From: Promethearchaeota archaeon
Lineage (GTDB): Archaea; Asgardarchaeota; Lokiarchaeia; Sigyniarchaeales; SOKP01
Assembly: GCA_019058245.1 (NCBI GenBank)
Contig: JAHPZJ010000019.1
Coordinates: 34,371-98,370, forward strand
DNA: 64,000 nt
Direction: 5' to 3'
Shown in pieces: positions 6,701-40,068 of the stretch. The first letter of the stretch is position 1. Each line of letters opens with the position of its first letter. Made by a program: the position numbers and the translations under genes. Under the pieces are notes generated by a model. That model searched no databases. It saw only the letters and a program-made list of their open reading frames with translations, and had not been told where the DNA came from.

Positions 6701-7921
6701 TTAACCAATTAAATCCTTTTTCCTAACATCTGGTGCTTTAAATAGAATTAACCCCGTTATAAGCATTATACAAGCAGCTACTGCGAAAGGTGGCCATCCT
6801 ACTAAATTTATAAGAGATCCATCCCTCATAGCACTAACCATAGTAAGATCTACAACAAATCCCATTAATATTGGTCCAATTACAAAACCAATATCTCCAA
6901 TCGTTCTATACACACCCATATAAATCTCAAGCTTATCTCTCGGAGCAATATCCGTAACATAAGCCGCGATTGGACCTGATAATCCACTTATAGCTCCATA
7001 TATAAAAATAACTAATGAAATATAGAAAAAATTCCCTGTAAAAGCAATCCATAGGGTCACTGGTGCTGATAAAATAAGAGACATTAACAGCGGTGTACGT
7101 CGTCCTATTTTATCTGAAAGTAAACCTATAAAAACCATTGTAATAGCAGTTGCAATACCCGCAATAGTTAGTAGAATACCAATACTGGCCTCATTTAAAC
7201 CAAGATCATTTCCCGAAAAAAGAGGTACAAGAGTATTTCTTACTCCTGTTCGTATAAAGAATAGCGCGAAAATTGAGGGAAGAACTGGTATAAATCTTGA
7301 ATCTTTTAAACTAAACCATGCCTCCTGATAAAGTTCATTTATTCCGATATGCTTTTCATCATTGTTCTTATTGATATGAGGTAAAATGAGTGTAGGAATG
7401 ATCCCAATTGCAGATATTATGGCATAAGCTAAAAATGGGGCACGAATACCGTAAGAATCTGCTACAAAACCACCAAAACTCGGACCAAAAATAGCTCCCA
7501 ATAATAAAAATCCAGAATATATACTCATTAAAAATCCCCTTCTCTCTGGGCTGGTAACCAAGGCAATAAATATAGTTGAAGTTGTTACATATATTGCAGA
7601 ACCAAATCCTTCAATGATTCGTGCAAATAATAAGATCCAATAATTTTGGGCTAATCCTGCCATAATTGAGGAAGATGATACAAGAACCAATCCTATGAGC
7701 ATCAAGTACTTTTTATTATATATTTGAGCCAAGAACCCTACAGGCAAATCAATGAACATACGTGCTATACCGAATGCTGAAACAACAAGTCCAACAAGTG
7801 TATAATTCACATTAAAAGATTCAGCATAGTAAGGTAATATCGGAGAAATAATACTCAATCCTAATAACACTAGAAATGTGACAATCGAAAGATTTAATGT
7901 AGTTATAATATCTTTTTGTAT
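6701..7921 (-). CDS. MFS transporter (DHA1-like); probable ATA start at 7921
   Basis: About 12 TMs; LSDKIGRR motif A; ARIIEGFG. TM1 extends upstream of the called GTG (7870) to an ATA preceded by GGGGAG. Confidence 0.88.
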   Translation of the reverse strand: MQKDIITTLNLSIVTFLVLLGLSIISPILPYYAESFNVNYTLVGLVVSAFGIARMFIDLPVGFLAQIYNKKYLMLIGLVLVSSSSIMAGLAQNYWILLFARIIEGFGSAIYVTTSTIFIALVTSPERRGFLMSIYSGFLLLGAIFGPSFGGFVADSYGIRAPFLAYAIISAIGIIPTLILPHINKNNDEKHIGINELYQEAWFSLKDSRFIPVLPSIFALFFIRTGVRNTLVPLFSGNDLGLNEASIGILLTIAGIATAITMVFIGLLSDKIGRRTPLLMSLILSAPVTLWIAFTGNFFYISLVIFIYGAISGLSGPIAAYVTDIAPRDKLEIYMGVYRTIGDIGFVIGPILMGFVVDLTMVSAMRDGSLINLVGWPPFAVAACIMLITGLILFKAPDVRKKDLIG

Positions 7922-8001
7922 TAATATCTCCCCTTGAACTGAATATAATTAAAAAAAAAATTATAAATTAAAAAACTTTTTTTCAAGATTAGTTCGGAAA
8001 T

Positions 8002-9246
8002 TTATCCATAATGTTTTTCTTCCTCATGCTCAGCATCAATAGCATCTTTTTCTAAATCACGACCAAGCCATTTCTCATTTAAAATTTCCTTATAATATTC
8101 ATGTTGGATGATTAAATTCATAATTTCTGTTGTTCCTGTCCAAATCTCACCTATTCTAGCGTCTCTTAATAACCTTTCAATTGGATAAACTGTTGTATAG
8201 CCAATTCCTCCCATAATTTGCATGGAATTATTAATTACTTTCCAACACGATTTAGTTGAAAATTTTTTCGATTCAGATACTAATCTTCTTTGAAGAGCAG
8301 GTGGGGCTCCGGCGTCAATACTTCTGGCAGTGTTATAAACAAAGGATCGTGTTGCGTCTAGTAATGTAATGCTATCAGCTATCAGAAAATTCACACCTTG
8401 AAAGTTCCTTATCGTTTGCCCGAAAGCTTTTCTTTTTGTACTGTATTTTGTGGCAATTCTTAAACACGCCCTCGCAAGACCAATAAAGCCCGAAGCTGTA
8501 GTTAAACGTTCAGGAACCATCATTTGATAAAAAATCTTTCCACCAGCACCTTCTTCAATAATAACATTTTCTTCAGGAACTATAACATTATTAAATTTTA
8601 TTCTACCTGCACCACCACCTCTAGTTCCTAATATACCATATAGATATTCAACAGAAACATTTTCGGTTCTTTCTACTATAAATAAACTTAAATTATAATG
8701 TGGATTGGCTTTTGGATCCAAATTAGTTTTTGCATAAACCAGAAAGAAATCCGCCCCTTCTGCGCCTACAACAAAACGCTTTTCTCCATTTAAGATATAA
8801 TGATCACCTTCTTTCTCCGCTGTGGAAGTAGCTCCAAAGAAATCAGATCCTCCTCTTGGTTCAGTTAAAGCTTCAGCAGTGAATTTCTTCCCTTCACACA
8901 TAGGTTTAAGATATTTCTGTTTTTGTTCTTCAGTTCCAAACATGTTCAGAGCTTCTCCGCAAATACTAGGTAAAGAAAATAAACATGCAAGTGAACTCCC
9001 TAATACTCCAATTTCTTCTTGAGCTATAATTTCACTCTCCCAATTCAATCCTCTTCCTCCATATTCTTTAGGAAATCTTATTCCTATTAGATTTTGTTTT
9101 GCTAATGCATTTAACCATTCAGTAGGATATTGAATCTCATCTTTATCCATTTTTTTTAATAATGAGGGGGGAACTGTGTTTTTAACGAATGTTCGTACTT
9201 CATTTCTAAATTTTTTGTTTTTTTCACTTAGTAGATAATCATACAT
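8002..9246 (-). CDS. Acyl-CoA dehydrogenase
   Basis: [42 protein letters not shown]. Confidence 0.95.
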
Positions 9247-9510
9247 TTTTGATTCTCTCTTAATGATATTTTAATAGCGATAAAGTAATTAAGAGTTCAA
9301 TAAAAATAATAATTTGGATTATTATCATTTTTTTTTTTATTAATAGCTATTTTGAAGTTCCATTGTAGTTCAATAATTAAAACTATAAATAATCAAAATT
9401 ACTTATTTTGCACACTATATAGTAAATTTATCGATTTTTTTTTAGATATTATTCGAAAAATCATAAAATTATACTTTATAATCTTAAAAAATTAAATATA
9501 CAATTCACCA

Positions 9511-10779
9511 ATGTTCGCTAAAATTAAAAAAGGCTATAAGGAATATCCCAAAACATTTAAAGTGCTGACCTTCGCCACTTTCATTGACCAAATAGGGACT
9601 TTCTTATTATATCCTTTTTTTGCTCTGTATGTAACTGAACGTTTTGGTGTAGGAATGATAGAAGTAGGATACCTATATTCAATCTTTGCTTTGGGAAATA
9701 TATTTGGAAATATAATCGGAGGAGCCTTAGCTGATAAATATGGGCGTCGTGCAATGGTTTTAATTGGTTTAATTGTAAGTGGGATAGGAAGTATCTTAAT
9801 GGGATTAGCTAATAATTTAAACACTTTTTATATACTTGCAGCGTTTCTAGGTTTAATAGGCAATTTTGGAGGTCCCGCACGACAAGCAATGGTGCCAGAT
9901 TTACTTCCAAAAGAAAAACAAGCCGAAGGATTTGGAATCCTACGCGTTGCTTTTAATCTCTCAGCTGTGATTGGTCCTATATTGGGTGGATTTATGGCAA
10001 CCAGATCCTATATGTTATTATTTATTTCTGATGCAATAAGCAGTATTATTACTGCTATTATAGTGTTTATTGTCATTCCAGAAACTAAACCTCAAACTCA
10101 GGATGAAACTTCAAAAGAATCAGTCATGAAAACATTAATAGGATATAAAGATGTTGTAAAGGACTGGAAATTTATGATTTTCATTGCAGTATCAGCTATA
10201 ACAGTTTTAGTATATATGCAGATGAATGGTCCACTATCAGTTTTCTTAAGAGATGTTCATGGGTTTCCCCTAGAAAATTTTGCTTGGTTAGTGAGTATGA
10301 ATGCAATAATAGTTGTTGTTTTTCAATTCTGGATAACTAAAATGATTTCGAAATATGCTCCTATGAAAATGATGGCTTTTGGAACGATTTTTCTTATGAT
10401 TGGTTTTGGGATGTATGGGTTTGTCTCCGAACCATATATGTTTTTTGTTGCTATGGCTATTATCACAGTGGGTGAATGTATTGTATTCCCTCTTGGACAA
10501 AGTACAGCAGCAGCATTTGCTCCAGAAGATAAACGCGGAAGGTATATGGCTATGTTTGCTTTTCAGTGGATGATTCCAAATCTGTTTGGTGTTTTAGTTG
10601 CTGGATTAGTTATGGAATATATTGGACCAAACTGGTTATGGTATTTCGCTGCGCTTTTATCTCTTCTTTCAATAATTGGATTTTTATTACTTAATAGAAT
10701 TACTACAATACATATTCTTGAAGAAAAAGAGCCTATAAATGAAGAATTTACTGAAATGGCTGTTCCATCAATTGAATGA
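9511..10779 (+). CDS. MFS transporter
   Basis: GGALADKYGRR motif A; about 12 TMs; APEDKRGRY. Confidence 0.92.
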   Translation: MFAKIKKGYKEYPKTFKVLTFATFIDQIGTFLLYPFFALYVTERFGVGMIEVGYLYSIFALGNIFGNIIGGALADKYGRRAMVLIGLIVSGIGSILMGLANNLNTFYILAAFLGLIGNFGGPARQAMVPDLLPKEKQAEGFGILRVAFNLSAVIGPILGGFMATRSYMLLFISDAISSIITAIIVFIVIPETKPQTQDETSKESVMKTLIGYKDVVKDWKFMIFIAVSAITVLVYMQMNGPLSVFLRDVHGFPLENFAWLVSMNAIIVVVFQFWITKMISKYAPMKMMAFGTIFLMIGFGMYGFVSEPYMFFVAMAIITVGECIVFPLGQSTAAAFAPEDKRGRYMAMFAFQWMIPNLFGVLVAGLVMEYIGPNWLWYFAALLSLLSIIGFLLLNRITTIHILEEKEPINEEFTEMAVPSIE

Positions 10780-10853
10780 GAGATCTTTGATTTTTTGTTA
10801 TTAATTACTTAGCATTTATTAATATTCTAAAAATACAAATTTTTTATTTAAGA

Positions 10854-10875
10854 TCGTGAAACGCATCTTTCACGA
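10854..10875. repeat. Inverted repeat TCGTGAAA-N6-TTTCACGA (hairpin or operator)
   Basis: Perfect 8-bp arms in an otherwise AT-rich intergenic region. Confidence 0.5.
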
Positions 10876-11005
10876 AAAATTTTAAGGCAATTTTCTAATA
10901 TTTTGAATTATTCAAATGTTCGAAAAGTGCACCTTAATACTTTAAATATAAAGGAGATTCTAATTCTATAAATAATTTATTTAAATAAGATTTAAACATC
11001 AAATA

Positions 11006-11731
11006 ATGAATAGCAATATAATGAAATCCACTGTAATTAAAATTTACATATTACTTACTAGTTACTTCTTCGGTTTGTTAATATGGCCAAGCATTTCTTA
11101 CCATTTAAAGATATATGATCCTTTTGGTTGTATCTTTTTTAATTATCTATTATTATGTAGTATATTTTTTATTTTAGATCTTTATAGGATAAAGAATAAA
11201 AACCCCTTCAATTATATCATGAAATTTATTATTTTATTGGCATTTCTTATTGAAGGTATTGGGCTTCAAATTTCCTTACCAGAATTTAATTCAATGCTTT
11301 GTATGATACCATCGCTCTACGCTTATAATGGACTCAAGGTTGCTTTTGCGGCATCCGTTACTGGTGGATTATTCATATTTATTTATCTTATTTCTTCTCT
11401 TATATACCAGATAAAAAAATCTATAGAAAAACCTAAAAAATATCATGATATTCAAGAGAAGGATAGAAATCAGAAAGAAAGATTCATAATCCAAGATAAT
11501 TCCTTGTTTTATATCTCAATTAGTCTTTTATTTTTTCATATTTCATTCTTAATACCATCTATTTTTGAAAGTATAGGATGTAATGGAATTCCTGATAATT
11601 CAATACCACCAGTAGGCCTCTTTTGGATTTTTCCGGGAATATTTTCTATTATATATTTATTATTTCTTATGGTAAGAAGACTCAAAATTAGATTAGCTGA
11701 AAAAAGAGCTCTATTAATCTCTCATGATTAA
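11006..11731 (+). CDS. Hypothetical multi-pass membrane protein
   Basis: About 6 hydrophobic segments, several with Cys in loops; no family recognised. Confidence 0.6.
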   Translation: MNSNIMKSTVIKIYILLTSYFFGLLIWPSISYHLKIYDPFGCIFFNYLLLCSIFFILDLYRIKNKNPFNYIMKFIILLAFLIEGIGLQISLPEFNSMLCMIPSLYAYNGLKVAFAASVTGGLFIFIYLISSLIYQIKKSIEKPKKYHDIQEKDRNQKERFIIQDNSLFYISISLLFFHISFLIPSIFESIGCNGIPDNSIPPVGLFWIFPGIFSIIYLLFLMVRRLKIRLAEKRALLISHD

Positions 11732-12888
11732 TTCAGTTGATTTTCAATCTCAAATATTATTTTGAGATATTTATACTTAGAATTAAGTAATTTTAGAACT
11801 TTATCAACAAAAATTCTTAAATTCTCTGCTTGAATTTTCTTTTCATCTTTTTGTTCAAGTAAAAATTCATGAAGCATCTTTCTTGTCTCACTAGGACCAT
11901 TTTCCTTAAAAAATTTCATCCAGTGAATTGAAATATTACATATTTTTTTTATATTCTTATTTGAATACTCATTTATATCAAGGATTTTCTCATGATATTT
12001 ATTTATAGCATAACTAACCCTTTCTAAATAATCGGCAGTACCCAATGAATATCTACATAAACTGATTAGATTTGAGGTGATTCTAGAGCTCCTAGTATTA
12101 GTTGCAGCTTCAAAGGACTCCCATATTTCATTCATTTCTTTATTTTTTCTATTTGCTAAATCGGAATTATATAAGGCTACATTCATGATATCACTAAGAT
12201 CAACATCATGTCCCCTTTTTAGTTTTTTATTAAAAATTTCTTTCAATCCCGTTCCTTCAAGATAACTTCCTGCTCCAAAGTCAAGTAACTGATTTAAATT
12301 GTTTGCAGCACACAGCTCCTCATATCTTACCTCTCCCGTATCAGGATTAGTCCATTGAACTTGTTTCTCAAACTCACCAGTTTCTTTATTCTTAACCCAT
12401 CCACACTCTTTTAAAGCATGATCTAAAACACCAACTTCAAAACACCAAAAGTCTATATCATCTGTAAAGCGTTTTCTTCTCCAATCTCTTGAAGTATATT
12501 TTCCTAAATATAATTTTAAAGTACCTCGAACTATAGCTTTCTTTCCTTCTTTTAATGCTTTTTTAGCACTATCACAATATGGATTAAGTGAATCTTCGGA
12601 ACACGTGATAATATGATTTAAAACTTTCCTAGCTTCACCTGCAACGATATCACAAGGAATATTCCCATCCGAAGGATACATTCTAGATCCTCCATCTAAG
12701 TATTTTTTAAATAACTTTAATTCATCTTCAGGTATCTTATACCAAGGATTATTAAACATTAACTTACTGAACACATAGTGAGTGAAACCATTTTCATCTA
12801 ATCTTGTTTTTTCTGGTAAGGGTGAGACATCTCTTAGATTATCTCCTTTTTGCTGAGTATCAGCTTTAATATCCCAAATTGATGTCAT
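11728..12888 (-). CDS. Putative AbiEii/DUF1814-like nucleotidyltransferase
   Basis: RGTLKLYL...RKRFTDDIDF resembles the GGTAL...RFSxDLDF motif; EIFNKKLKRGHDVDLSDI resembles the C-terminal K...R..xDxxD motif. Confidence 0.55.
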   Translation of the reverse strand: MTSIWDIKADTQQKGDNLRDVSPLPEKTRLDENGFTHYVFSKLMFNNPWYKIPEDELKLFKKYLDGGSRMYPSDGNIPCDIVAGEARKVLNHIITCSEDSLNPYCDSAKKALKEGKKAIVRGTLKLYLGKYTSRDWRRKRFTDDIDFWCFEVGVLDHALKECGWVKNKETGEFEKQVQWTNPDTGEVRYEELCAANNLNQLLDFGAGSYLEGTGLKEIFNKKLKRGHDVDLSDIMNVALYNSDLANRKNKEMNEIWESFEAATNTRSSRITSNLISLCRYSLGTADYLERVSYAINKYHEKILDINEYSNKNIKKICNISIHWMKFFKENGPSETRKMLHEFLLEQKDEKKIQAENLRIFVDKVLKLLNSKYKYLKIIFEIENQLN

Positions 12889-12974
12889 ACGAGATATTAT
12901 ATTGAATGTTGCTTTTAAAAATTATTAATTTAAAATATAAAATTTATTTTAAATCTAAACCCTATTGATAATAT

Positions 12975-13658
12975 ATGAACAGTTTTTTTCGCATATTTAC
13001 TCTCACTCCTTGGGATTCGCTTAATTTAAAAACTCTAACTGAAGTAAAATTATATTCATTGAAAAACATATTTAAAACCTTTCCCGTAATTGAACCTGAG
13101 TTTTTCGATGATCTCCTTTCAAATCTGTACAAATTTGATCATTACTCCTTGATTGAAAGCATCAAACGAATTGTTGGTCCTGAGAATGAGGATTATGATA
13201 TAGAACCATGGAATTTTATATGGGGAATGGATAATGAAAGAAGAATCTTTCAATTTTTATTTCAAAGAGTTAAAAATGAAATTAAAGGATCTCAAGCAAC
13301 ATTAGTAGCATTAGCTCCTCCAGAATTAGGAACATTATTTGCTCAATATAAAAAAGAAGCACTCCATAGGACTTTATCTCTTCTAAATAATCCAAAAAAC
13401 ATGAAATTTTTGCTAGTTTTATCACCTAAAGGAAAATCTGTTGCCGAAAAGCAGCAATTGCTTCATATAAGTAAGAAAGAATTAGAAAAATTTAAATTTA
13501 AAGAAAAGCTCAAACAAATGCCAAATATTAAAGGAGAGTGGGTTGTAACTCGTTCCCCAAGGTGTTCCAACTGCGGAAAAGAATTTCCAGAGATAAAGGC
13601 TTTGAACGTGTGGTCTTTTAAATTTAAATGTCCATATTGCGGACATCAGAATAAATAA
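12975..13658 (+). CDS. Hypothetical protein with C-terminal zinc ribbon
   Basis: CSNC...CPYCG at the C-terminus. Confidence 0.7.
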   Translation: MNSFFRIFTLTPWDSLNLKTLTEVKLYSLKNIFKTFPVIEPEFFDDLLSNLYKFDHYSLIESIKRIVGPENEDYDIEPWNFIWGMDNERRIFQFLFQRVKNEIKGSQATLVALAPPELGTLFAQYKKEALHRTLSLLNNPKNMKFLLVLSPKGKSVAEKQQLLHISKKELEKFKFKEKLKQMPNIKGEWVVTRSPRCSNCGKEFPEIKALNVWSFKFKCPYCGHQNK

Positions 13659-13756
13659 AAATACTTATTTTTCAGATAAAAAATTAAAAATAATTTTTAT
13701 TGAATCGTACGATATATAATTTATTAAAAAAAAATATAATTGGAGCTAAATTAGAA

Positions 13757-15292: not shown

Positions 15293-15469
15293 AAATTAGA
15301 ATTTATATCATAATACTCAATTTTATATATTTTAAATGTTATTTTTTCTATAATCAAAATTACTCGGTATTATATAGAGCAAATTTCTTTTTATAATGCT
15401 GAAACCAGTTGAGTAGAAAAAGAAATAGTACAAATCGACACTATAAAAAAAAAATAAAATGTGAAAAAA

Positions 15470-16224: not shown

Positions 16225-17751
16225 ATGGCAATTAAAGTTGGAACTGTATTTAATTACTTACAATTACCTAATGTATCTAAATTTGCATTTGTTATTAATA
16301 AAAGACAAGATGGTACCCTTATACAAAAAGGATTATTTGTCTATACAAATTCGAGTGAAGGATTCTTAATTGGAACGATTGAAGAGATTGTCTTATTGAA
16401 TGAGTATTTTGCTGATGCTCTTACAATCAAAGCGTTTAACAATAATAATAATCCTAACATCCTTAAAGGTCTTTTTCCCAGTGATGATTTTGAATTTGCA
16501 ATTGCGATAGTGAAATGCCTAGGGCTGATAATATTTAAGGATAAAGACAATCAAGAAATTGTAAGAGTTCAACGAATGAGTTATCCTGCGAGTCCAGGAA
16601 AAGAAGTATATATGGTAGAGGAAGAAGTTCTTAATAAGTTCTTAGGATTCGATAGTAAAGCTGGTTTAAATTTAGGACGAGTGAAGGTAACAAATTCTGA
16701 AGCACTAGTCAATATGAATAGATTGCTAAATAAGCATTTTGCTATTCTTTCAATCTCAGGAGGTGGTAAGAGTTACCTTACATCAGTACTTATCGAAGAA
16801 TTACTGATAAGAAATAAGGATTTTGGAACACCTTCCATAATTTTATTTGATGTACATGGAGAATATTTGTATTTAAAAGATATTCCTAAGTTTAAAGACA
16901 GAGTGAAAATTCAAGATATCTCATACTTTCAAATAGGAGTACCTAAATTATCCGCCTATTCTTTCAAAAAATATCAAGAACAAATTTCATCAGTTCAATT
17001 AAGAGAACTCTCTAAATATATAAAAAAATTGAGGAAAGAAAAACAAAAGAAAAATCAATATTCTTTAACTGATATAATTAAAGTTGTTGAAGAAGAAACT
17101 GATGGAAACAAGAGTACAAAACAAGCATTAATAGGGTGGCTCTCAGAATTGGAACGATTGACTCTCTTTGGATCTCAGGAGAATCCTTCATTAGATAAAG
17201 TAGTGAATAATCAAGAAATCACTATTTTTAACTTTCAGAAAGAAGTGAGTATTAGAAAAAAGCAAATTATTGTTGATTATATTTGCAACCGTCTATTTAA
17301 TCTCCGAAGAAATGACAATATAGCCCCATTTTTGCTCGTTGTAGAAGAGGCTCATCAATTCTGCCCAGAGGCAGCCCATTCCAAAGCCATCTCCAAACCT
17401 ATTATAGAAATGCTTGCTCGAGAGGGAAGAAAATTTATGGCATGCTTATGTTTAATTAGTCAGAGACCAAAAAAGTTGAGTACAACTGCATTATCTCAAT
17501 GCAATTCAAAATTAGTATTAAGTATTAAAAATCCATATGATTTAAAACATCTAATGGATAGTTCAGAAGCGATAACTAAAGAATACGCTAATATAATTTC
17601 AAGCTTGGGCGTTGGAGAAATGTTGTTGATGGGAAATGCAGTAAATTATCCTGTGTTCATTGATGTGAGAAAGAGAAAATTTAAATTAAGGGATGAAGCG
17701 AAATCTTTAGCCCAATTCTGTTTAGATTGGCAAAAAAAAGAATTAATATAA
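16225..17751 (+). CDS. herA: HerA/FtsK-family ATPase (HerA helicase-like, N-terminal HAS barrel)
   Basis: KHFAILSISGGGKSY (Walker A), LFDVHGEY, VVEEAHQFCP (Walker B), AREGRKF, SQRP, SQCN, LGVGE. Confidence 0.88.
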   Translation: MAIKVGTVFNYLQLPNVSKFAFVINKRQDGTLIQKGLFVYTNSSEGFLIGTIEEIVLLNEYFADALTIKAFNNNNNPNILKGLFPSDDFEFAIAIVKCLGLIIFKDKDNQEIVRVQRMSYPASPGKEVYMVEEEVLNKFLGFDSKAGLNLGRVKVTNSEALVNMNRLLNKHFAILSISGGGKSYLTSVLIEELLIRNKDFGTPSIILFDVHGEYLYLKDIPKFKDRVKIQDISYFQIGVPKLSAYSFKKYQEQISSVQLRELSKYIKKLRKEKQKKNQYSLTDIIKVVEEETDGNKSTKQALIGWLSELERLTLFGSQENPSLDKVVNNQEITIFNFQKEVSIRKKQIIVDYICNRLFNLRRNDNIAPFLLVVEEAHQFCPEAAHSKAISKPIIEMLAREGRKFMACLCLISQRPKKLSTTALSQCNSKLVLSIKNPYDLKHLMDSSEAITKEYANIISSLGVGEMLLMGNAVNYPVFIDVRKRKFKLRDEAKSLAQFCLDWQKKELI

Positions 17752-18015
17752 ATCTGTAACTAAACCTTCTCTTAGAGCTTGATTATTTTTATTAAGAACA
17801 ATCATGTTCTTGTTTTTTGAAACACGAAATACATTAATTATTGCCATACTCTCCAACTTCATAAATAATTCTTCTAAAATTAATGAATTTACAAAAGGAA
17901 ATTCTTTTTTGAGAAGTTCCTCCAATCTTTTATCCAATATTTCTCCTTTATTTTTGATTAAAATATCGATTATAGAATTCATTACTGGTTTTTGATTCCA
18001 ACGATGAGATTCGAT
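17743..18015 (-). CDS. Small winged-helix protein downstream of Cdc48; probable ATC start at 18015
   Basis: Helix-helix-helix plus wing pattern (LFMKLESMAIINVFRV); frame open to an ATC 6 nt after AGGTGA. Confidence 0.6.
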   Translation of the reverse strand: MESHRWNQKPVMNSIIDILIKNKGEILDKRLEELLKKEFPFVNSLILEELFMKLESMAIINVFRVSKNKNMIVLNKNNQALREGLVTDLY

Positions 18016-18100
18016 TTTATGTCACCTATTATAATACATATAAAAATAGAATACAATAATGAAGAATATCTTTTTTCTAATTAATTTTTGCTATTTTATT

Positions 18101-23129: not shown

Positions 23130-23558
23130 TTAATTACTGAAAACTCTATTTATAAGGGTTTTTCCTGCCATTTGCCAATATTCTACTTGAGTTGTTGAGA
23201 TCTTACTAGGCTCTTCTTGAAGCACCTTTAATTTTTTTTTAAGATCCTCATCCTGTGGCCAATCAACATCAAATGATTCATATGATTCCAAATCCATAAT
23301 ATTGATGGATGCATCCTCAATAAAATTAATTTGGGCATTTCCTTTTATAATTTCAGGAGTATCAACGACATGTCCCGATGGAATAGTAAGACTCCTTTTG
23401 TTGTTATCGAACATTCCAACACATACGACTCTTACTTTAGCGTGACCATGTTTCCCGCTTTTTGAACGCTCAGTACTCTTAATGATACATGGCTCTTCAT
23501 CAACCATAATGTATTGTCCTGCTTTTAACTTTTGAATCTCAGTTCTTCTTATTGAAAT
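23130..23558 (-). CDS. eif5a: Translation factor aIF5A (eIF5A); probable ATT start at 23558
   Basis: Hypusine motif SKSGKHGHAK. The conserved N-terminus SIRRTEIQKLKAGQYIMVD lies upstream of the called Met (23507), preceded by AGGTG and an in-frame stop. Confidence 0.95.
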   Translation of the reverse strand: MSIRRTEIQKLKAGQYIMVDEEPCIIKSTERSKSGKHGHAKVRVVCVGMFDNNKRSLTIPSGHVVDTPEIIKGNAQINFIEDASINIMDLESYESFDVDWPQDEDLKKKLKVLQEEPSKISTTQVEYWQMAGKTLINRVFSN

Positions 23559-24032
23559 GATTTTACACCTTTAATATGATATACTATTAATAAGCTTTAA
23601 TTTTCTATATTATTGTTTTATCATAAATTTTTCTATTGTTTATATCTATTAATAAGAAGAAGGTCTTATTATTATTAAAAGATCTTTAAAAACCTGCTAA
23701 ATAGTTCTTCTTTACGTTCAAAAAATAGGAAACTCAATGTTTAACGATGTCTATTCAGGCGGGTTTCAAAAATATTCTCTTCAATTATTAATTGCTTCAT
23801 ATCTTTAAAATTATCATTAACTTTCAGAACATTAGAAGGTCTTTTAGTTTGTTTTTAATTCTACTCAATCATTGACTTTTTTTTATAAAATAAATTTTAA
23901 CTTCTTAGAGTTAAGACTAAACTGCTTATCTTTTTTAAGATTTAAATTCACTATTGACAGAATAGTTTTTAAAAAATATTCAATTATAATTATAGATTTT
24001 TTAAAAAATATATAAAAATAGGTAAATGGTAT

Positions 24033-24938: not shown

Positions 24939-25144
24939 TTATTCGTGAGGTTTCAAACTAATCTATTTTTTTATTCAACTTTTTGATATTTTAAGATAAA
25001 ATTCAAATTTGAGAGAGAAAAGTTAAAAAAAATTTGTGAAAAAAGTAACTTTTTGGTGTCTTTGCTTCACAGTCCAAAGAATTTAATCAAATGATGAAAG
25101 TTTTATTTAATTTCCAATTCAATTATCATAAAAGGTGAACTTTT

Positions 25145-26224
25145 TTGACGTTAAAAACTAATATTACCGAAATGTTTGGAATTAAGCACCCAATCGCAAA
25201 TGCTGCAATGGGTCCTTACAGAACAAACGAGATGGCTATAGCAGTCGCAGATGCGGGTGCTCTAGGGATGATTTCACACACAAACCAATCTATGGATGGT
25301 AGGGAAGAAACTGCATTAGCAGCAATGAAAAAAAATCTTGATTATGTTGTAGAACATACAGATGGGATTTTTGGGTTTAATATAAGGACTTCGAGATTAA
25401 CAACAGATTGTGACAAATTAATTTCAGAAACCGCAAAGCATATAATGGCGAATCCTAAATTAAAAGAACAATGTCTCTATGCCCTTACTAGTGCGGGTTC
25501 GGCAACAAGAATGGCCCAGAATCCAGATTTCAAGAAATTGAGGGAAATCTCACAGGTTAAGCACTTCCATGTTGCCCCTGCACTCTGGTTGGCAGAAAAA
25601 TGTGTGAACGCGGGATGTGACGGGCTTGTAGTAACTGGGTTTGAAGGTGGTGGACATCAATCATATGAAAAAGTTGGAGGATTAGTATTATTGCAGCAAG
25701 TACAACAAAAATACCCAGATATTCCAAAAATCGCATGTGGTGGATTTGCTACTGGTAATGGTCTTGCTGCAGCCCTAGCTATTGGGGCAGGGGGCATTTC
25801 CATGGGATCGAGATTTATTGCATCAATTGAGAGTGAATTCCATGAAAAATACAAGAATGTCGTTCCCCCTGCAAAAGCTCAAGATACTGTTGTGAGAACA
25901 GGTTCTTTGGGAACCATCAGACTCTGGAAGAACAAATTTGCAATGGCAAAAGGATTAGTAAAGAGTAAAGAAGAAAAAATGGCTGAAGAAAAAGCTAAGG
26001 AGGAACATAGAACTGAAATTTCAAAAGAAGAACTTATGGAAGAATTAAGAAAAGATACAATTGCCCAATATGCGGTTTATGAGGGTGATATGGATAATGG
26101 GTATATATTATTAGGGCAGAGTATAGGTATTGTAAACCAAATAGACAGTATTCCCGATATTATCGAAACTGTTGTTAAAGACGCAGAAAAAGCACTAAAA
26201 AAAGCTGTAACGTATGTAGAATAA
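25145..26224 (+). CDS. Nitronate monooxygenase / FabK-like FMN oxidoreductase
   Basis: IKHPIANAAMG, GFEGGGH, ACGGF, MGSRF, GQSIG; TTG start 6 nt after AGGTGA. Confidence 0.9.
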   Translation: MTLKTNITEMFGIKHPIANAAMGPYRTNEMAIAVADAGALGMISHTNQSMDGREETALAAMKKNLDYVVEHTDGIFGFNIRTSRLTTDCDKLISETAKHIMANPKLKEQCLYALTSAGSATRMAQNPDFKKLREISQVKHFHVAPALWLAEKCVNAGCDGLVVTGFEGGGHQSYEKVGGLVLLQQVQQKYPDIPKIACGGFATGNGLAAALAIGAGGISMGSRFIASIESEFHEKYKNVVPPAKAQDTVVRTGSLGTIRLWKNKFAMAKGLVKSKEEKMAEEKAKEEHRTEISKEELMEELRKDTIAQYAVYEGDMDNGYILLGQSIGIVNQIDSIPDIIETVVKDAEKALKKAVTYVE

Positions 26225-29655: not shown

Positions 29656-29687
29656 GGTTTTAACCCAAACTTATAGATAGAGTCTTC

Positions 29688-30692: not shown

Positions 30693-30718
30693 TTACATAA
30701 TCCTTGTTTTTTTTTAAA

Positions 30719-31723: not shown

Positions 31724-31859
31724 ATTTTATAAAACCTTCAAAAAAAAAAATAATTCCCTATATTAAAGTATTTATCAAATTTTATATTAATGATAATAAT
31801 TATTGATGGAGGAAGAAAAATATTATTTTAATAAACTCAATTTTTTCACTTAATTTGTG

Positions 31860-31883
31860 AAATCAGAAACAGAATTTACTTTT
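31860..31883 (+). repeat. Imperfect direct repeat, copy 2 (AAATCAGAAACAGAATTTACTTTT)
   Basis: 22 of 24 positions identical to 26316-26339. Confidence 0.6.
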
Positions 31884-31933
31884 TTAATCCTAATCCATTT
31901 GAGATTAAGAAAAAATTTGAAAAAATCGAAATT

Positions 31934-32497: not shown

Positions 32498-32805
32498 TAA
32501 TCACTGATTTAATCGATATTTATAATTTAAAAAAACTCTACTCAATACAAATAGTTTTTTCGAAATTAAAAATTATTAAAAATTTTACTTATTTTCAACC
32601 ATGATATATTACCTTGATACTAAATTTAATATCTCATTTCTCCTAGTAGACAATTTCTAATACACCTTAGTTTATTCTTTCTCATCCAAAATTTTTTAAT
32701 TTTGAGATTTCTTTTAATGTATATTAGATTATAATTATTGAAAAAAAAATATTGATTTTAGAGAATTTATTCAAGTACACTAAAAAATTTTAAAACTGGG
32801 AAGTA

Positions 32806-34179
32806 ATGGTATTAGAGAAATTAGGTAGATCACTTGACACGGCAATAAGAAAGCTTAGAAGACTTCCATCAGTAGATAAAGCCGCGATTGATGGACTTAT
32901 TCAAGAATTGCAGAGATCCTTACTAAGTTCAGACGTAAAAGTGGAATTAGTGTTCGAGATGACAGAAAATATTCGAAAAGAAGCTATGAATACTAAACTC
33001 CAGAAGGCAAGACGTAGAGATTTTATTATTAAATTAGTACACGATGAGCTTATTAAACTATTAGGTGGGAAACCTGCTCCTATAAGAATAAAACCAGGGA
33101 AAAAGAATATTATTTTACTTGTTGGGATTCAAGGTTCAGGAAAAACTACTACAATTGCAAAGATAGCAAAATACTACAAAAGCAAAGGTTATAAGGTTGG
33201 AGCATTAACAACTGATACATGGCGACCTGGAGCTTATGAACAATTAGTGCAATTATCAGAACAAGTAGGTATAAAGTGTTATGGAAATCCTAATGAAAAA
33301 AATGCTATTAAAATTGCAATTCAAGAGACTAAAAAGGCAATAAATGAAGGGAATGATATTATTATTACAGATACTGCCGGGAGACATAAAGAAGAAAAAG
33401 AATTAATGAAAGAAATGGCTATTCTTGAACAAAAATTAAAACCAAATGAAATCATCTTAGTAATTGATGGCACACTTGGGCAACAGGCATATAATCAAGC
33501 AGAAGCATTTGCCCAGACAACTAAGGTAGGTTCTATTATTGTAACTAAATTAGACGGGACTGCTAAAGGAGGTGGTGCTTTATCGGCATGCTCTGCTGCG
33601 AACGTTGGTATACGTTTTATTGGTACTGGGGAAAAAATAGATGATTTTGAGGAATTTGAACCCTCTAAATTTGTAGGAACTCTACTTGGAATTCCTGATA
33701 TTGAATCATTAGTTCAAAAAGTACAAGAAGCTGAAGTTGATATTGAACCCGAAATGGTTAAAAGGATGATGCATGGTAAATTTACTTTAGATGATTTATA
33801 TCTCCAATTAAAGAGTATAAAAAAAGTAGGTAAATTTAAGCAGATATTAGCTATGATGGGTGGTGGGAACATTCCAGATGCATTGAAAGAAGATGCAGAA
33901 GCAAACCTCGCAAAGTGGGAGGTAGTTTTAAGTTCTATGACACAAGAAGAGAAAAATGAACCAAAAATTATAAAAAAAACCAGGAAAAGAAGAATAGCAA
34001 TTGGTTCAGGTGTTGAGTATTCAATTATAAATAAAATGCTTGATCAATATAATCAGATGAAGAAATTTATGAAAAGATTTCTTCAAATGCAAAAAAAGGG
34101 AAAGGGCATGCCGGGAATGCCAGGATTACCTGGTGGAAAAGCTGGAGCTGATTTTATGAAAAAATTAGGTAAATTTTAG
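32806..34179 (+). CDS. srp54: Signal recognition particle 54 kDa protein
   Basis: GIQGSGKTTT, DTWRPGA, DTAGRH, TKLDGTAKGGG; Met-rich M domain (SMT.EE, RIAIGSG). Confidence 0.97.
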   Translation: MVLEKLGRSLDTAIRKLRRLPSVDKAAIDGLIQELQRSLLSSDVKVELVFEMTENIRKEAMNTKLQKARRRDFIIKLVHDELIKLLGGKPAPIRIKPGKKNIILLVGIQGSGKTTTIAKIAKYYKSKGYKVGALTTDTWRPGAYEQLVQLSEQVGIKCYGNPNEKNAIKIAIQETKKAINEGNDIIITDTAGRHKEEKELMKEMAILEQKLKPNEIILVIDGTLGQQAYNQAEAFAQTTKVGSIIVTKLDGTAKGGGALSACSAANVGIRFIGTGEKIDDFEEFEPSKFVGTLLGIPDIESLVQKVQEAEVDIEPEMVKRMMHGKFTLDDLYLQLKSIKKVGKFKQILAMMGGGNIPDALKEDAEANLAKWEVVLSSMTQEEKNEPKIIKKTRKRRIAIGSGVEYSIINKMLDQYNQMKKFMKRFLQMQKKGKGMPGMPGLPGGKAGADFMKKLGKF

Positions 34180-34213
34180 AAAATTATCTTTACTAAAAAT
34201 ATATTTGATTAGA

Positions 34214-34867
34214 TTGGTAAACTTCTTAATTTTACAAGAAAAAATAATTGACTATAATAAAAAAACCATAGATAAAGGTCTTACACCTCAAAAAGTTTAT
34301 GAAATATGTTCTTGTCTTAGAGAAGCTTTCTGCTTATCTTATTCTATAAGAAAGAACAATTCTTTATATTTATATTTTCAAAAGGAACATGTTTTAATAA
34401 AGTTTGAAGGAAAAGAATTACGATATTTAGGTCCTGATGAGAGATCTCAAGCTTTGCTATTAGAGAAGGTTTTAAGGAAAGTAAAAAGTGAAAGTAATAC
34501 TAAAAATGATTCATGGTTAAAATCAACGCCTGGAATTTTTATTAAAAAATTTTTGAATGATTTTTCTTTTATGGCTTTTTATAAATCAATAGCAATCGGA
34601 ACCAGCTTTTTAATAATAAATAACACTCAAATTGAAGAAGATATAGTAGATGATTTAATTTTAAATAAACAGATTTTTGATATTAAAGACGATGATTTTT
34701 TCATCATTCCAACTTATACCATAACGCAAGAAATTTCTAATATTATTGAATTATTCAAAAAATCAAAAAATACAAAACTTTTATCTTTTTCAAAAATTAA
34801 AGATGTGGAAGATATAATTTTATATATTAATTTTAAAAAAGATCAACAAATAAGACTCGAAAAATAA
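34214..34867 (+). CDS. TrmY-like SPOUT protein (tRNA pseudouridine-54 N1-methyltransferase-like), C-terminal SAM knot degenerate
   Basis: AFCLSYSIR, LRYLGPDERS and STPGI are TrmY signatures; GDH and SLG motifs not seen. Confidence 0.7.
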   Translation: MVNFLILQEKIIDYNKKTIDKGLTPQKVYEICSCLREAFCLSYSIRKNNSLYLYFQKEHVLIKFEGKELRYLGPDERSQALLLEKVLRKVKSESNTKNDSWLKSTPGIFIKKFLNDFSFMAFYKSIAIGTSFLIINNTQIEEDIVDDLILNKQIFDIKDDDFFIIPTYTITQEISNIIELFKKSKNTKLLSFSKIKDVEDIILYINFKKDQQIRLEK

Positions 34868-34875
34868 AAGTAAGA

Positions 34876-36267
34876 ATGATCCTAAAGAACGCAAAAATTT
34901 ATTCTGATGGCTTTCTAAAAAAGGGAGCTTTGCTTCTCAATGAAGGGATTATAAGTAAAATTAAATTTAATGCTCAGGAAAACGATTTAAGAGAGTTAGC
35001 CAAAAAAAATCCCGATAAAAAAGAATTAGATTGTCAAAATAAATTAATATTACCAGGTATAATTGATATTCATTCTCATTTACGAGATATGGAACAGAGT
35101 GATAAAGAAACTTTTACAACAGGTACTCAAGCAGCTGCATTTGCGGGAATTACAACTGTTTTTAACATGCCAAATACAAAGCCTCCAGCAATATCTGCAA
35201 AACAAATAAGAAAGTGGTTGGAAAAAGCGGAAAGAAATATTTTTATTAATGTAGGTTTTATATCAGGGATTCCAAAAGGATTTAATTACGATGAAATTTT
35301 AAAAATTATTGAGTTAGGAGTAATAGGATTTAAAATATATCCGCTTAACTCTTTGAATGGGATTGACTGGACTGATTCATTAAATATTCAAAAACTTCTT
35401 AATATCTCTTATAAATTTCAAATTCCAATATTCATCCATCCTGATTGGCCACTCTCTGAAGGGAAAAGAGCAGATCTCTATCAAGAATTCATGCTCAAAA
35501 GATATCCTTTTTTAGAATATCATAATAAATTATTTCCGGTTTATACAGAAGCTAAGTATGTTAATTTTATTCTCGAAAATTATTATAAACTAATTACTGA
35601 TAATAATCTTGATCCTGAAAATTATCCAATTATTCATTTTTGCCATGTAAGCTGTAAAGAGAGTTATTTGCCAATACAAAGAGCTATACAAATGAATTCT
35701 AAATTGAAAATTACGTTTGAAATAACACCTCACCACTTACTTTTATCAAATGAACTTAAATTAAATAATCCATATATTGGTAAAGTCCTACCTCCTCTAC
35801 GAGATAAAGAAAATTCTTCATACTTATTTAATGAATTAAAGGAGGGCAAAGTAAATATTATAGCAACTGATCATGCTCCCCATACTAAAGAAGAAAAGCA
35901 AAATGAATTCGATGCGTTATCGGGATTTCCTGGTTTTGAAACGTATCCACTAGTGATTCTTGAGAAAGTATTTAAGTACCGGCTTTCAATTGAAAATTTC
36001 ATTAAAGCAGCGTCAGAAAATCCTGCTATAGTTTTTAAATTGAAAAATAAAGGATTTATTAAGGAAGGCTATGATGCTGATTTATTTATCGTTGATAAAG
36101 TTCCTGATTATAAAATAAATCCCCAGATTTTTAAAACTAAAGCCAAATTTTCTCCTTTTGAGGATTTTGTCACCTCTGTTAAAATTTGGAAAGTATTTTT
36201 AAGAGGTATTGAAATTAATAATGATGTTTCTGCTCCAAACGGAAACATTATTAGAAGAATTCTATAA
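34876..36267 (+). CDS. pyrC: Dihydroorotase (type I)
   Basis: PGIIDIHSHLR, MPNTKP, HFCHVS, EITPHHL, PPLR, ATDHAPH. Confidence 0.9.
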   Translation: MILKNAKIYSDGFLKKGALLLNEGIISKIKFNAQENDLRELAKKNPDKKELDCQNKLILPGIIDIHSHLRDMEQSDKETFTTGTQAAAFAGITTVFNMPNTKPPAISAKQIRKWLEKAERNIFINVGFISGIPKGFNYDEILKIIELGVIGFKIYPLNSLNGIDWTDSLNIQKLLNISYKFQIPIFIHPDWPLSEGKRADLYQEFMLKRYPFLEYHNKLFPVYTEAKYVNFILENYYKLITDNNLDPENYPIIHFCHVSCKESYLPIQRAIQMNSKLKITFEITPHHLLLSNELKLNNPYIGKVLPPLRDKENSSYLFNELKEGKVNIIATDHAPHTKEEKQNEFDALSGFPGFETYPLVILEKVFKYRLSIENFIKAASENPAIVFKLKNKGFIKEGYDADLFIVDKVPDYKINPQIFKTKAKFSPFEDFVTSVKIWKVFLRGIEINNDVSAPNGNIIRRIL

Positions 36268-36326
36268 AATATAAATGTATGAAGGGTATAATTATACATA
36301 AGTCATGTGATTTTTAAAGTATTAAA

Positions 36327-36959
36327 ATGTCTGATGAAGAAAAATTTAGCTTAGAAAAGGGGATAATTTTAGTCAGATTCGCTAGAGAGAATATCGAATT
36401 TTTTTTAAAAAATAATCGAAAGATTCCTGTTCCAGATCGTATTAAAGAAGAATTTGCAGATAACTATGGTGCTTTTGTCACATTAAATAAATATAATGTT
36501 AGTGGAAACCCATTGAGAGGGTGTATAGGTTATATTGAACCAACATATTCTTTATATGATGTTATACATAGAGTATCAATAAGCGCAGCTATTGAAGATC
36601 CACGATTTCTTTCAGTTACTATAGAAGAAATGGATAATATAGTTATTGAATTATCAATTTTAACACCCCCTAAACTTATAGAAGTTAATGATCCGAAAGA
36701 TTATATCAATAAAATAGTTATTGGAAGAGATGGTCTTATTGCAGAGCGAGGAATGCGACGGGGATTGCTTTTACCGCAAGTACCGATAGATCAGGGCAGA
36801 AATTGGGATGTTGAAACGTTTATTTCTCATACATGTTCAAAAGCGTGGTTAGATAGCAATGCTTGGAAAAAAAAAGATACAAAAATATACTCATTTCAAG
36901 CTATTCTATTCGAAGAGGAAAAACCACGGGGAGATGTGATTAGAAAGTATCTCATGTAA
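36327..36959 (+). CDS. AMMECR1-domain protein (TIGR00296 family)
   Basis: GAFVTL, LRGCIG, DPRF, ELSILT, GLLLPQV, KA.L. Confidence 0.93.
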   Translation: MSDEEKFSLEKGIILVRFARENIEFFLKNNRKIPVPDRIKEEFADNYGAFVTLNKYNVSGNPLRGCIGYIEPTYSLYDVIHRVSISAAIEDPRFLSVTIEEMDNIVIELSILTPPKLIEVNDPKDYINKIVIGRDGLIAERGMRRGLLLPQVPIDQGRNWDVETFISHTCSKAWLDSNAWKKKDTKIYSFQAILFEEEKPRGDVIRKYLM

Positions 36960-37069
36960 AAGAGATAGTACTTTTCATATTAGAATGTGAAAATAATTAG
37001 ATTGATTTATAAATATTAAAAAACCCAAGACACGTGATTTATTATTTTCTGCCCTTGGATTCAAAAAAA

Positions 37070-37804
37070 TTACATAATTTTATTCTTTAACGCATATAAT
37101 GCACTTCTGGTTGATTCTTTAGCTTGTTGCTCTGTGACCATACCGATTGTTACTGCACATATATTATGATTAGAAATATATTTATATGCTGTTTCTGGTT
37201 CAATCTTTCCTGCTGCTAATGTTTTCATCGCAATAAAATGAAAACTTTTATTCTTGTCAACTATTTCTTCCAATTCTTCAGCATTTCCCATTAACATTCC
37301 AATCGAATTAAATGGAATTAAAAAAGTTTTAACATTTAAAGAATTTTCTATACAATATTTCAATGTAGGAATTGGATCATGCGTTGCGACACCTGAAATT
37401 ATTCCATTACTAGTGATTTGGTCCAAAAGTTTTACCAAATCTCCTCCCCTAACGTCAGAAACCATCCCATGCACAAAAATTAATTTAGCGCCTATTTTTA
37501 CTAAAGTATCAATGCCTGAATTCTTATCTGGATAAGTAGAACCTGTTATAACATAATCACTATGCATTTCACTCATTGTTTTTGCTGCTTCAACAATCTT
37601 TCCAATTGGTATTACCTCAATACCTCTGGCCCCTTCAATATAACTGGCTTCTAATATCTCTAATATCGCTTTTGGATTGTTTAAAAATTTCCTTTGCCAT
37701 TCGATTGCTTTATATCCGAATTGACCTGCTCCTATAAATGGAGAAGTTCCTGTGGAAATAAGAGGGATATTTACATCATCAATTTTACAAAAAATGTTAA
37801 ACAC
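37070..37804 (-). CDS. Aldo/keto reductase-like TIM-barrel protein
   Basis: GTSPFIGAGQFG, GVATH.P, PFNSIG.LM, IAMKTLAAG, VTIGM. Confidence 0.65.
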   Translation of the reverse strand: MFNIFCKIDDVNIPLISTGTSPFIGAGQFGYKAIEWQRKFLNNPKAILEILEASYIEGARGIEVIPIGKIVEAAKTMSEMHSDYVITGSTYPDKNSGIDTLVKIGAKLIFVHGMVSDVRGGDLVKLLDQITSNGIISGVATHDPIPTLKYCIENSLNVKTFLIPFNSIGMLMGNAEELEEIVDKNKSFHFIAMKTLAAGKIEPETAYKYISNHNICAVTIGMVTEQQAKESTRSALYALKNKIM

Positions 37805-37989
37805 TTCTTTTAATTATAAAATAAATATAGTTCAGTTTGTTCTATATTTTTAATATGGGAATTATTGAATTTTAATTAAGTTCACATAAAATATAATCTT
37901 CAAAAATCATATTAAATCAAAAAAATTATTATTCTTAAAAAGCATTTGAAATTCACTTTTGATTTCTATTCAGTGAAGAGGAGATTAGA

Positions 37990-40068
37990 ATACAATCTAT
38001 AAATGGCATTATTTGTAATGCATTAGGATTTTATAATAAAAATTTAAAAATAATCGAAACATTAAATTCTCTTCTTTTTCGTCATATAATCACGAACCAA
38101 GCAAATTCTCTTATTCTTTTTGGAAATATAAATGAAAGTAATTCAATTTCTATAACAGAAAAAATAAAACTTATCGATTTGATTTTAAATATCACCCCGA
38201 ATAAAATCCCTATTATTATTGGTGTCTATGGTAATCATGCTGATGATGTTTTAGAACAAATAGAGTATTTAGGAAAGAAATTTGAAGTTCTAAATTTTAT
38301 GATTTCTCCACCCTTTTCTGAAAAAAAACCAAAAGAAATTATAGATTCTTACTTTGAAAATATTCTAAGTTCAATAAATGTTAAAAATCAGATTTATTTA
38401 ATTAATAATCCGCTCCAATTTGCTGGAAATGAAATCGAACCAGATTTATTAAAAAACTTAATGGAATATGAGAATTTGAAGGGATTAAATGATTCCTTTT
38501 ATAATATCAAAAACTGTAAATCGTACATTCAATATTTAAATAACCAATTTTCAGTTTTTTGTGGAATGGAGGAAAATGCTCAAAGTTTTTTGCAACTTGT
38601 TCCGGTTAATCAAAGAAAATTCTGTGGGATAGTCTCTAATATCAGTAATTTAGTCAATATGAGTTCAAAATTATATAATTATGCGTTAGAAGATAATATC
38701 TTAGATTTGTTGCAATTGCAAGAACAAATTAATGATATGCGAAAAATGATTTATGAAATTAAAACAGATACGGATGAAGAATTAATTGGATTAAAATACG
38801 CATTTCTATATTTATATAGAGACGTTATTTTAGAAACAGATAAAGATATAAAGTTAATTTCTGAAGAAATTCGTAATCAAATTAACCCAATTAGTAAGGA
38901 AAAAATCGAGGCTATCGTTAATTCCTTATTAAATAACAAACATATTTATCGATTATATCATGTTGGCAAAGGAGATTTTTATCAATTCGATGAAATCATA
39001 AAAACTTTTTCTAATTTTGAAGTTTTAGTTAAACAAGGTAAAGTGAAAAAAATCAAAGAACCTTATGTTTCTGATATCAATACCCTTAATAGAGTAAATT
39101 TTGAAAATAATCAATTAGTTTTTAGATTTCGCACCGGTCAATTAAAATCAGTTGAAAATTTAATCAAGGAAAAACTCTTATATCCTTTTTTAGATAAGAC
39201 TTTAAATCCTGATGATTTTGAGTTAAGAAATAAAGTGAAAGAAATCATCAATACAAAGACAGGTTCATATATCTTCAATAAAGATAAACCTCCAATAATT
39301 CCTGTTTGTAATTTACTTTACTATGATGAAACTCAAGAAATAATTCCCTATCTTTTCTCAGTAGAAGAGTATATTCGAGGAAAACCTTTATCTCAACTAA
39401 TCAATCAATATACTAGCGAAGGAAAAAATTTAAACACAACTAAATTTCTGAATTTATTCAGTACATTGGGAGAACATCTTGGAAACTTACATAAAATAAA
39501 ATTTGATACGTTTTATAATAAAATTATCAATATCGGAAAAACTAAAGATGTATCATACGGTGAATTATTTGAAACTGAATTAGAACAAAAAATACGTGAA
39601 GCTACAAAAAATCAATTAGATTTTTCTGATGAAATAAGGAAATATTATCAAGATAATAAGGTTTTAATTGAAGATGAAAATGAGTTTGTAATTTTACATA
39701 ATAATTTTCAAAGTGAAAACATTATTGTAAAAGAAGAATCAGGGATGATAAACATTAAAGGTTTTGTAGGTTTTGATTATTGGAATATTGGTAATAGAGC
39801 TCAAGAATTTATCAAAATTGATTATTGGCTCTCAAAATTTTTGAATTTCCCTTCATTTTATAATGCTTTTTATAATGCATATTCTAAATATCATAAAGTA
39901 AATAGTGATTTTAAGAAAAAAATAGAATTATTCAAATTAATCTGGTTATTAGATAAATATAATTTAGAATATGATTTAATAAAAAGGTCAGATCAGAAAG
40001 AACTTCTCAAAACGCTAAAATTATCATTAGAAAGCAATATAGATGAAATGAAAGTCATAATTCGATAA
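37990..40068 (+). CDS. DapA/DHDPS-like TIM barrel fused to an APH/choline-kinase-like domain, both apparently inactive; probable ATA start at 37990
   Basis: Upstream in-frame NGII...LILFGNINE is a DapA-type N-terminus; IIIGV, SPPF, NNP, KGLNDS. C-terminal half has EEYIRGKPL, LGNLH, LHNNFQSENIIV, GFVGFD. Confidence 0.7.
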   Translation: MQSINGIICNALGFYNKNLKIIETLNSLLFRHIITNQANSLILFGNINESNSISITEKIKLIDLILNITPNKIPIIIGVYGNHADDVLEQIEYLGKKFEVLNFMISPPFSEKKPKEIIDSYFENILSSINVKNQIYLINNPLQFAGNEIEPDLLKNLMEYENLKGLNDSFYNIKNCKSYIQYLNNQFSVFCGMEENAQSFLQLVPVNQRKFCGIVSNISNLVNMSSKLYNYALEDNILDLLQLQEQINDMRKMIYEIKTDTDEELIGLKYAFLYLYRDVILETDKDIKLISEEIRNQINPISKEKIEAIVNSLLNNKHIYRLYHVGKGDFYQFDEIIKTFSNFEVLVKQGKVKKIKEPYVSDINTLNRVNFENNQLVFRFRTGQLKSVENLIKEKLLYPFLDKTLNPDDFELRNKVKEIINTKTGSYIFNKDKPPIIPVCNLLYYDETQEIIPYLFSVEEYIRGKPLSQLINQYTSEGKNLNTTKFLNLFSTLGEHLGNLHKIKFDTFYNKIINIGKTKDVSYGELFETELEQKIREATKNQLDFSDEIRKYYQDNKVLIEDENEFVILHNNFQSENIIVKEESGMINIKGFVGFDYWNIGNRAQEFIKIDYWLSKFLNFPSFYNAFYNAYSKYHKVNSDFKKKIELFKLIWLLDKYNLEYDLIKRSDQKELLKTLKLSLESNIDEMKVIIR

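Follow-up and report, generated by a model that had tools for sequence, protein, structure and literature searches.

Where does translation begin in an archaeal gene whose conserved reading frame extends upstream of its first ATG, GTG or TTG? The question is raised by a window of 64,000 nucleotides (nt; 30% GC), the whole stretch of DNA analyzed here, which spans positions 34,371 to 98,370 of contig JAHPZJ010000019.1 (C19) of assembly GCA_019058245.1, a Promethearchaeota metagenome-assembled genome (MAG) named G000 below. G000 (3.09 Mb in 31 contigs, 76% complete, 29% GC) is a member of a large genus of Promethearchaeota (Lokiarchaeota) MAGs. Four genes of the window, encoding an MFS transporter, a small conserved protein (wH), the translation factor aIF5A and a DHDPS (DapA)-like fusion protein, had been predicted to start at ATA, ATT or ATC (collectively ATN) and not at a canonical codon (ATG, GTG or TTG). 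Comparison with relatives and a survey of the genome make it likely, with good confidence, that ATA, ATT and ATC are real start codons in G000 and its genus, used on leadered mRNAs with a strong Shine-Dalgarno (SD) motif.

When the sequence was re-read, the coordinates, motifs and spacers of all four ATN sites agreed with the original prediction. Each proposed start follows an in-frame stop by a few codons, and no ATG, GTG or TTG occurs in between. The claim that conserved sequence precedes the first canonical codon also held, by profile matches for MFS, aIF5A and DHDPS and by orthologues for wH. The canonical TTG at 25145, taken as a comparison case, stands 6 nt behind the 6-mer AGGTGA (25133..25138, + strand) as had been noted, at an aligned distance of 14, this distance being counted from the first G of the SD consensus to the start codon. 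Leaderless initiation was considered, and the SD found 6–7 nt upstream at all sites argues against it.

The aIF5A gene, identified by a profile match and orthologues, runs from ATT 23558 (23130..23558, − strand) and encodes 142 amino acids (aa). A TAA lies just upstream of the ATT, the SD AGGTG (23566..23570, − strand) stands 7 nt before it at an aligned distance of 14, and the first ATG (23507) is 17 codons further in. Position 3 of the NF003076 profile corresponds to residue 7 of the frame and ATG 23507 to residue 22; a start at this ATG would delete 17 residues that match profile positions. The fusion gene (37990..40068, + strand), supported by a profile match and 30 orthologues, begins at ATA 37990, 6 nt behind the SD-like GAGGAG (37978..37983, + strand), and its first canonical codon is TTG 38179, 63 codons past the ATA. 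Here position 4 of the DHDPS profile is residue 15 of the frame and TTG 38179 is residue 73, and starting at the TTG would delete about 60 residues of the DHDPS barrel. The product, of about 700 aa, joins a DHDPS (DapA)-like TIM barrel to an APH-type phosphotransferase (APH-like kinase) domain and occurs in 37 of 40 searched congeners.

The MFS transporter gene (6701..7921, − strand, stop included), likewise identified by a profile match and orthologues, starts at ATA 7921 behind the SD-like GGGGAG (7928..7933, − strand; 6 nt spacer, aligned distance 10). An in-frame TAA lies 10 codons upstream, and the first canonical codon is GTG 7870. Position 1 of the MFS_1 profile is residue 20 of the stop-to-stop frame and GTG 7870 is residue 27; a start at the GTG would remove half of the first transmembrane segment. 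The wH gene (17743..18015, − strand; 90 aa) starts at ATC 18015, 6 nt behind the 6-mer AGGTGA (18022..18027, − strand) at an aligned distance of 14, and its in-frame stop is the TGA inside this motif. No family match was obtained for wH in the profile search and its first ATG is only 11 codons downstream, so this case rests on orthologue conservation. Among the approximately 55 open reading frames (ORFs) of the window, no further clear ATN start was found. One start on the + strand is ambiguous, with ATA 27089 behind AGGT and, 10 codons later, GTG 27119 behind GAGG.

Orthologues of the four genes were compared in up to 40 species of the genus, and for all four the codon at the homologous start was canonical in some congeners and ATN in others. 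In most of 30 congeners the wH gene has GGTGA-N6-ATC/ATA/ATT; in one, G023, the codon is ATG. Conservation with synonymous changes extends over the peptide ESHRWNQKP, encoded upstream of the ATG of G000, and that ATG is replaced elsewhere by TTA, ATA, GTA, CTA and others. For the fusion gene, the homologous start codon in 30 orthologues (G000 included) is ATG in 12, TTG in 3, ATA in 12 and ATT in 3, and GAGGAG with its N6 spacing is kept in nearly all of them. At least six start-codon changes were counted on the gene tree, with at least three origins of ATA and one ATA clade of 8 species. The four MFS orthologues found have ATA in three cases and ATG in one (G041); GGAG, ATATTA and the ATA are conserved in two of the ATA-starting ones, G005 and G045. 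For aIF5A, the codon homologous to ATT 23558 is TTG behind AAGGTG in each of the 22 congeners that gave a readable start. A set of 80 related species genomes yielded 68 readable aIF5A starts (TTG 32, ATG 30, ATT 5, GTG 1), the five ATT starts forming a separate clade.

In the course of this comparison, a Loki-type aIF5A 74% identical to that of G000 was found on contig DATKTW010000120.1 (L367), titled "Candidatus Nanopelagicaceae bacterium", and copies 83–89% identical were found in MAGs titled Thor-, Hermod-, Hod- and Odinarchaeota (L307, L308, L309 and L324). These records are probably mis-binned or mislabelled.

The orthologues bear on two other explanations. Since G000 is a metagenome-assembled draft, the ATN codons might be assembly or sequencing errors for ATG. 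The same codons nevertheless reappear at the corresponding positions of many genomes that were assembled independently, closed ones included, three different third bases are involved, and an error would not produce an enrichment bound to SD spacing such as that described below; the chance that error accounts for the sites is practically negligible. Alternatively, translation might begin at the first downstream ATG, GTG or TTG, the conserved-looking open stretches upstream being untranslated leaders. These are the starts that gene callers choose, and for wH the ATG is near. Such starts would nevertheless come at the cost of the transmembrane, profile and barrel residues listed above, and in wH it is the upstream peptide that is conserved, with synonymous changes, and the downstream ATG that is not. 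As set out next, downstream initiation would also strip domain N-termini from further genes and leave a peak of ATN at SD spacing without a reason, and we consider it very improbable.

The genome-wide signal was examined in the 2501 stop-to-stop frames that reach 120 codons or more, which cover 85% of G000. Enriched motifs upstream of first ATGs spell GGAGGTGAT, at a distance of 12–17 from the start codon. An orphan SD was defined as a 5-mer SD at the 5′ end of a frame without a canonical start in range (n = 123). At distance 12–14 from orphan SDs, 55 of 113 in-frame codons were ATN (ATA 27, ATT 20, ATC 8), compared with about 12% (12.5%) at other distances (odds ratio 7, Fisher P = 1.4e-18), indicating that the predicted excess of ATN starts extends far beyond chance across the genome. 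The three most enriched codons at this position were ATA, ATT and ATC, with ATA highest. GTT (6), CTG (3) and ACG (2) were slightly and marginally over-represented there (P ~0.015–0.13) and may be further near-cognate starts. A tally of SD-N-codon patterns over the whole genome without ORF context was dropped, also for many genomes, because GGTGA inside coding sequence swamps the signal.

The geometry of the ATN starts is narrow. The distance is exactly 14 (GGTGA plus 6 nt) at 40 of the 55, compared with a spread over 12–17 at ATG starts, and the mean longest SD match is 5.75 nt at ATN starts versus 5.42 nt at ATG starts (P = 0.001). None of the ATN starts uses the GGAGG core. Exact GGTGA-N6 at frame 5′ ends is followed by ATA 15, ATT 8 and ATC 4 times, versus ATG 11, TTG 7 and GTG 3 times, so that ATN (27) outnumbers canonical codons (21) in this context. 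The pattern points to a relaxation of start-codon selection that holds behind strong SDs of at least 5 bases, mostly (A)GGTGA, at near-fixed spacing, and not in general. By these counts at least about 50 genes, or at least 2% of long ORFs, would start at ATN in G000, a lower bound because GGAG-type cases such as MFS and the fusion were left uncounted. The orthologues and the genome-wide enrichment together bear out, at the sequence level, the relaxed AUN selection that had been proposed for the lineage, and dozens of ordinary genes of the genus, aIF5A included, very probably start at ATN.

A group of three paralogous coiled-coil proteins of G000 was noted in which ATT is followed by SIDW(A/V)KAE and preceded by AAGGTGA (C28:260156-261046, and C27 with starts at 52959 and 52075). 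Duplication of the gene has left this non-canonical start in place.

As a check by homology, 20 ATN-start proteins were scanned for which a canonical start would cost at least 32 residues. In 11 of them a Pfam domain begins upstream of the first canonical start and would thus lose its N-terminus; 8 were undecidable and 1 was an internal match. The 11 include ThiF, ApbA, Usp, aldo/keto reductase, ribosomal L10e/uL16, XPD-type helicase, DUF134, YdjM, metallo-beta-lactamase and DUF1295. In the ATN-start forms, position 1 of the ApbA profile is residue 3 and position 2 of the Usp profile is residue 1. The internal match, at C23:77172, belongs to a frame that remains open for 100 more codons upstream, again lacking any canonical start. 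This molybdopterin oxidoreductase frame (C23:76875-79211, + strand) has no ATG, GTG or TTG in its first 140 codons. Because its Pfam match starts mid-profile at the SD-based hit, the true start would lie further upstream and would also be non-canonical. Selenocysteine read-through at C23:77172 was rejected: the stop at its boundary is TAA, and the frame runs on further upstream. In the window, the expectation that standard gene calling would truncate such proteins is matched by the records, in which aIF5A (125 aa) and wH (79 aa) appear as called, shortened products.

In its commonest geometry, an ATN start has an in-frame TGA 6 nt upstream, within GGTGA. Ribosomes terminating at this TGA might therefore restart at the nearby AUN without fresh start selection. 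Yet a same-strand ORF ends within 30 nt upstream of 19% of ATN starts, compared with 47% of canonical strong-SD starts, and the four window genes are preceded by AT-rich intergenic DNA. The DNA upstream of ATN starts in G000 is AT-rich and promoter-like, with TATA-like elements roughly 50–70 nt upstream. The smaller share of operon-internal ATN starts and the promoter-like upstream DNA argue against termination-reinitiation, which we regard as highly unlikely. The ATN-start genes of G000 are mostly first or single cistrons.

How far this use of ATN reaches was assessed in samples of other genomes. In a 400-kb sample of the closed congener G006 (CP070831.1), ATN made up 15 of 30 codons at distance 12–17, against a background of 13%. 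Outside the genus sampling was thin, with 0.4–0.8 Mb from each of three genomes: ATN accounted for 4 of 19 at distance 12–14, none of them ATA, in G032 (family f2, genus g2; 31% GC; 800 kb), for 2 of 9 in G038 and for 2 of 24 in G033 (53% GC). A further 250 kb of G030 (family f2, genus g5) contained 2 orphan SDs. Behind GGTGA-N6, the ratio of ATN to canonical codons was 31:24 in two genomes of the genus versus 3:19 in three other families (Fisher P = 0.0008). These comparisons identify ATN initiation as a trait of the genus, beyond this MAG alone, as far as sequence can tell. In the three other families sampled the habit is weak or not seen, and isolated ATT starts turn up in other parts of the order.

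The initiation machinery was examined in congeners. Their initiator tRNA has A1:U72 and the anticodon arm GGG-CUCAUAA-CCC, in which the anticodon CAU is canonical. The 3′ end of their 16S rRNA is also canonical, GGAUCACCUCC, the same as in family f2, with the terminal sequence GGATCACCTCC. At the level of DNA, in which base modifications do not show, the canonical anticodon arm and 16S 3′ end of the congeners argue against an altered initiator tRNA or an altered anti-SD. Of 24 congeners, 22 have the factor aIF1, with its basic-loop motif RKWG intact. Every congener with a readable aIF1 start (21 of 21) has ATT there and no canonical start ahead of the zinc knuckle; the homologous start is ATA in G030 and ATG, TTG or GTG in other families. 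Inspection of aIF1 and the initiator tRNA had been proposed as a check on the original prediction; the initiator anticodon proved canonical, the RKWG motif of aIF1 conserved and the start of aIF1 non-canonical.

Only about 20 tRNAs per genome were detected with ARAGORN and Rfam, because of introns, and the initiator was found through its similarity to copies from other families. In the genus the initiator tRNA gene (L166 = G023:C1:903348-903455; L167 and L168) is interrupted at 37/38 by an intron of some 30 nt; in the copy of family f2 (L161, G032) an insert lies in the D-arm region instead.

Real ATN starts might also be read by another decoder, such as a second initiator-like tRNA (for example of Ile type), a modified C34 as in mitochondria, or mRNA editing. 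The tRNA set is only partly known, with about 20 genes detectable per genome, and ATA is the most enriched codon. Mitochondrial 5-formylcytidine at position 34 (f5C34) reads AUA, which is counted in favor of this explanation. Against it, a canonical initiator tRNA is present in congeners, and A-to-I editing cannot account for the starts, since ATA, ATT and ATC are all used. In bacteria, the AUN starts that are known are read by the normal initiator (PMC13009471), which also speaks against a separate decoder. Overall, another decoder is unlikely, though less so than the explanations weighed above.

Initiation at ATN by the ordinary machinery could proceed as follows. Pairing of (A)GGTGA(T) with the 16S 3′ end would place the codon 6 nt (sometimes 7) downstream into the P site. 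The ordinary Met-tRNAi, with anticodon CAU, would pair with the A and U, the third-base mismatch being tolerated, and the aIF1 check would let the mismatched AUN pass. The ATT start of aIF1 would couple the level of this factor to the efficiency of AUN initiation, perhaps as feedback. AT-biased mutation (29% GC) may turn ATG into ATA, ATT or ATC where a strong SD buffers the loss. As a tentative proposal, somewhat less likely true than false, the genus may live in a state of naturally relaxed stringency in which AUN behind GGTGA-N6 is almost as effective as AUG, in genes including those for ribosomal proteins, aIF5A and aIF1, with stringency set by the AUU-started aIF1.

Several points weigh against initiation at ATN as proposed here, for which the support is comparative sequence data. 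Frames were called simply from stop to stop, which is crude, and of the 20 hits checked one proved to lie inside a longer frame. Initiator tRNA, aIF1 and 16S genes were not found in the 76%-complete MAG G000, so the machinery readings come from congeners, and comparison of the aIF1 basic loop revealed no decisive change peculiar to the genus. Genome-wide, ATN was not enriched behind SDs with a match of only 4 bases. The aligned spacing of MFS falls below the 12–17 usual in the genome, and the SDs of MFS and the fusion gene, of GGAG type at aligned distances of 10–13, do not fit the dominant GGTGA-N6 geometry.

ATA, ATT and ATC are formally allowed starts in NCBI tables 11 and 4, and are used by AT-rich genomes and organelles. 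Mitochondria do without an SD and depend on a modified initiator, and in some of them AUA also codes for Met during elongation. Their use of such codons thus differs from that in the genus, which is strictly SD-dependent; a change of ATA to Met alone would not account for the latter, because all three ATN codons serve as starts. Closer in kind is Staphylococcus aureus, in which AUA/AUU starts at infC, cvfC1, ccpN and citZ lie behind extended SDs and reach ~10–30% of AUG efficiency (PMC13009471). Common to both are an AUA/AUU correctly spaced from an extended SD of unusual strength, a non-canonical codon conserved among relatives, and such a codon in the gene of the proofreading factor. The likeness is not complete, in that two window cases (MFS and the fusion) carry only GGAG-type motifs. 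The scale differs as well: S. aureus, a bacterium, has four regulatory cases per genome, whereas G000, an archaeon with eukaryote-type aIF1 and aIF2, has at least ~50 genes, or at least 2% of long ORFs, housekeeping genes included, and behind GGTGA-N6 roughly every second start-like codon, counting ATN and canonical ones together, is ATN.

Bacterial infC, encoding IF3, has an AUU start with translational autocontrol, and eukaryotic eIF1 has an AUG in poor context. The aIF1 of the genus resembles both in that the factor rejecting poor starts is itself made from a poor start. Autocontrol, as of IF3 and eIF1, may extend to aIF1. The AUU of bacterial infC coexists with very rare AUN use elsewhere, so a start of this kind cannot alone explain the wide use in the genus.

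Reviews of archaeal initiation list AUG, GUG and UUG only, and in a cultured Lokiarchaeon SDs are not prevalent (PMC7531240). In ribosome profiling of Haloferax volcanii, ~30% of putative alternative starts were near-cognate and were set aside by the authors (PMC7261190). Literature searches on AUN starts in Asgard archaea, or in archaea at large, returned no relevant work, and no paper on such starts in Asgard archaea. The kind of event is known, and the scale, the host and the genes involved are new.

If ATN is the start of at least 2% of genes, and of about half of those with GGTGA-N6, gene finders restricted to ATG, GTG and TTG clip N-termini, signal anchors and P-loops or overlook small genes altogether. 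Such misannotation of starts matters because Asgard proteomes are mined for eukaryote-like proteins. If the relaxed stringency proposed above is true, the genus would provide the first example among archaea of near-cognate initiation on the scale of a genome. It would open the question of a trade-off between SD anchoring and codon proofreading, and that of an autoregulation of aIF1 as for IF3 and eIF1.

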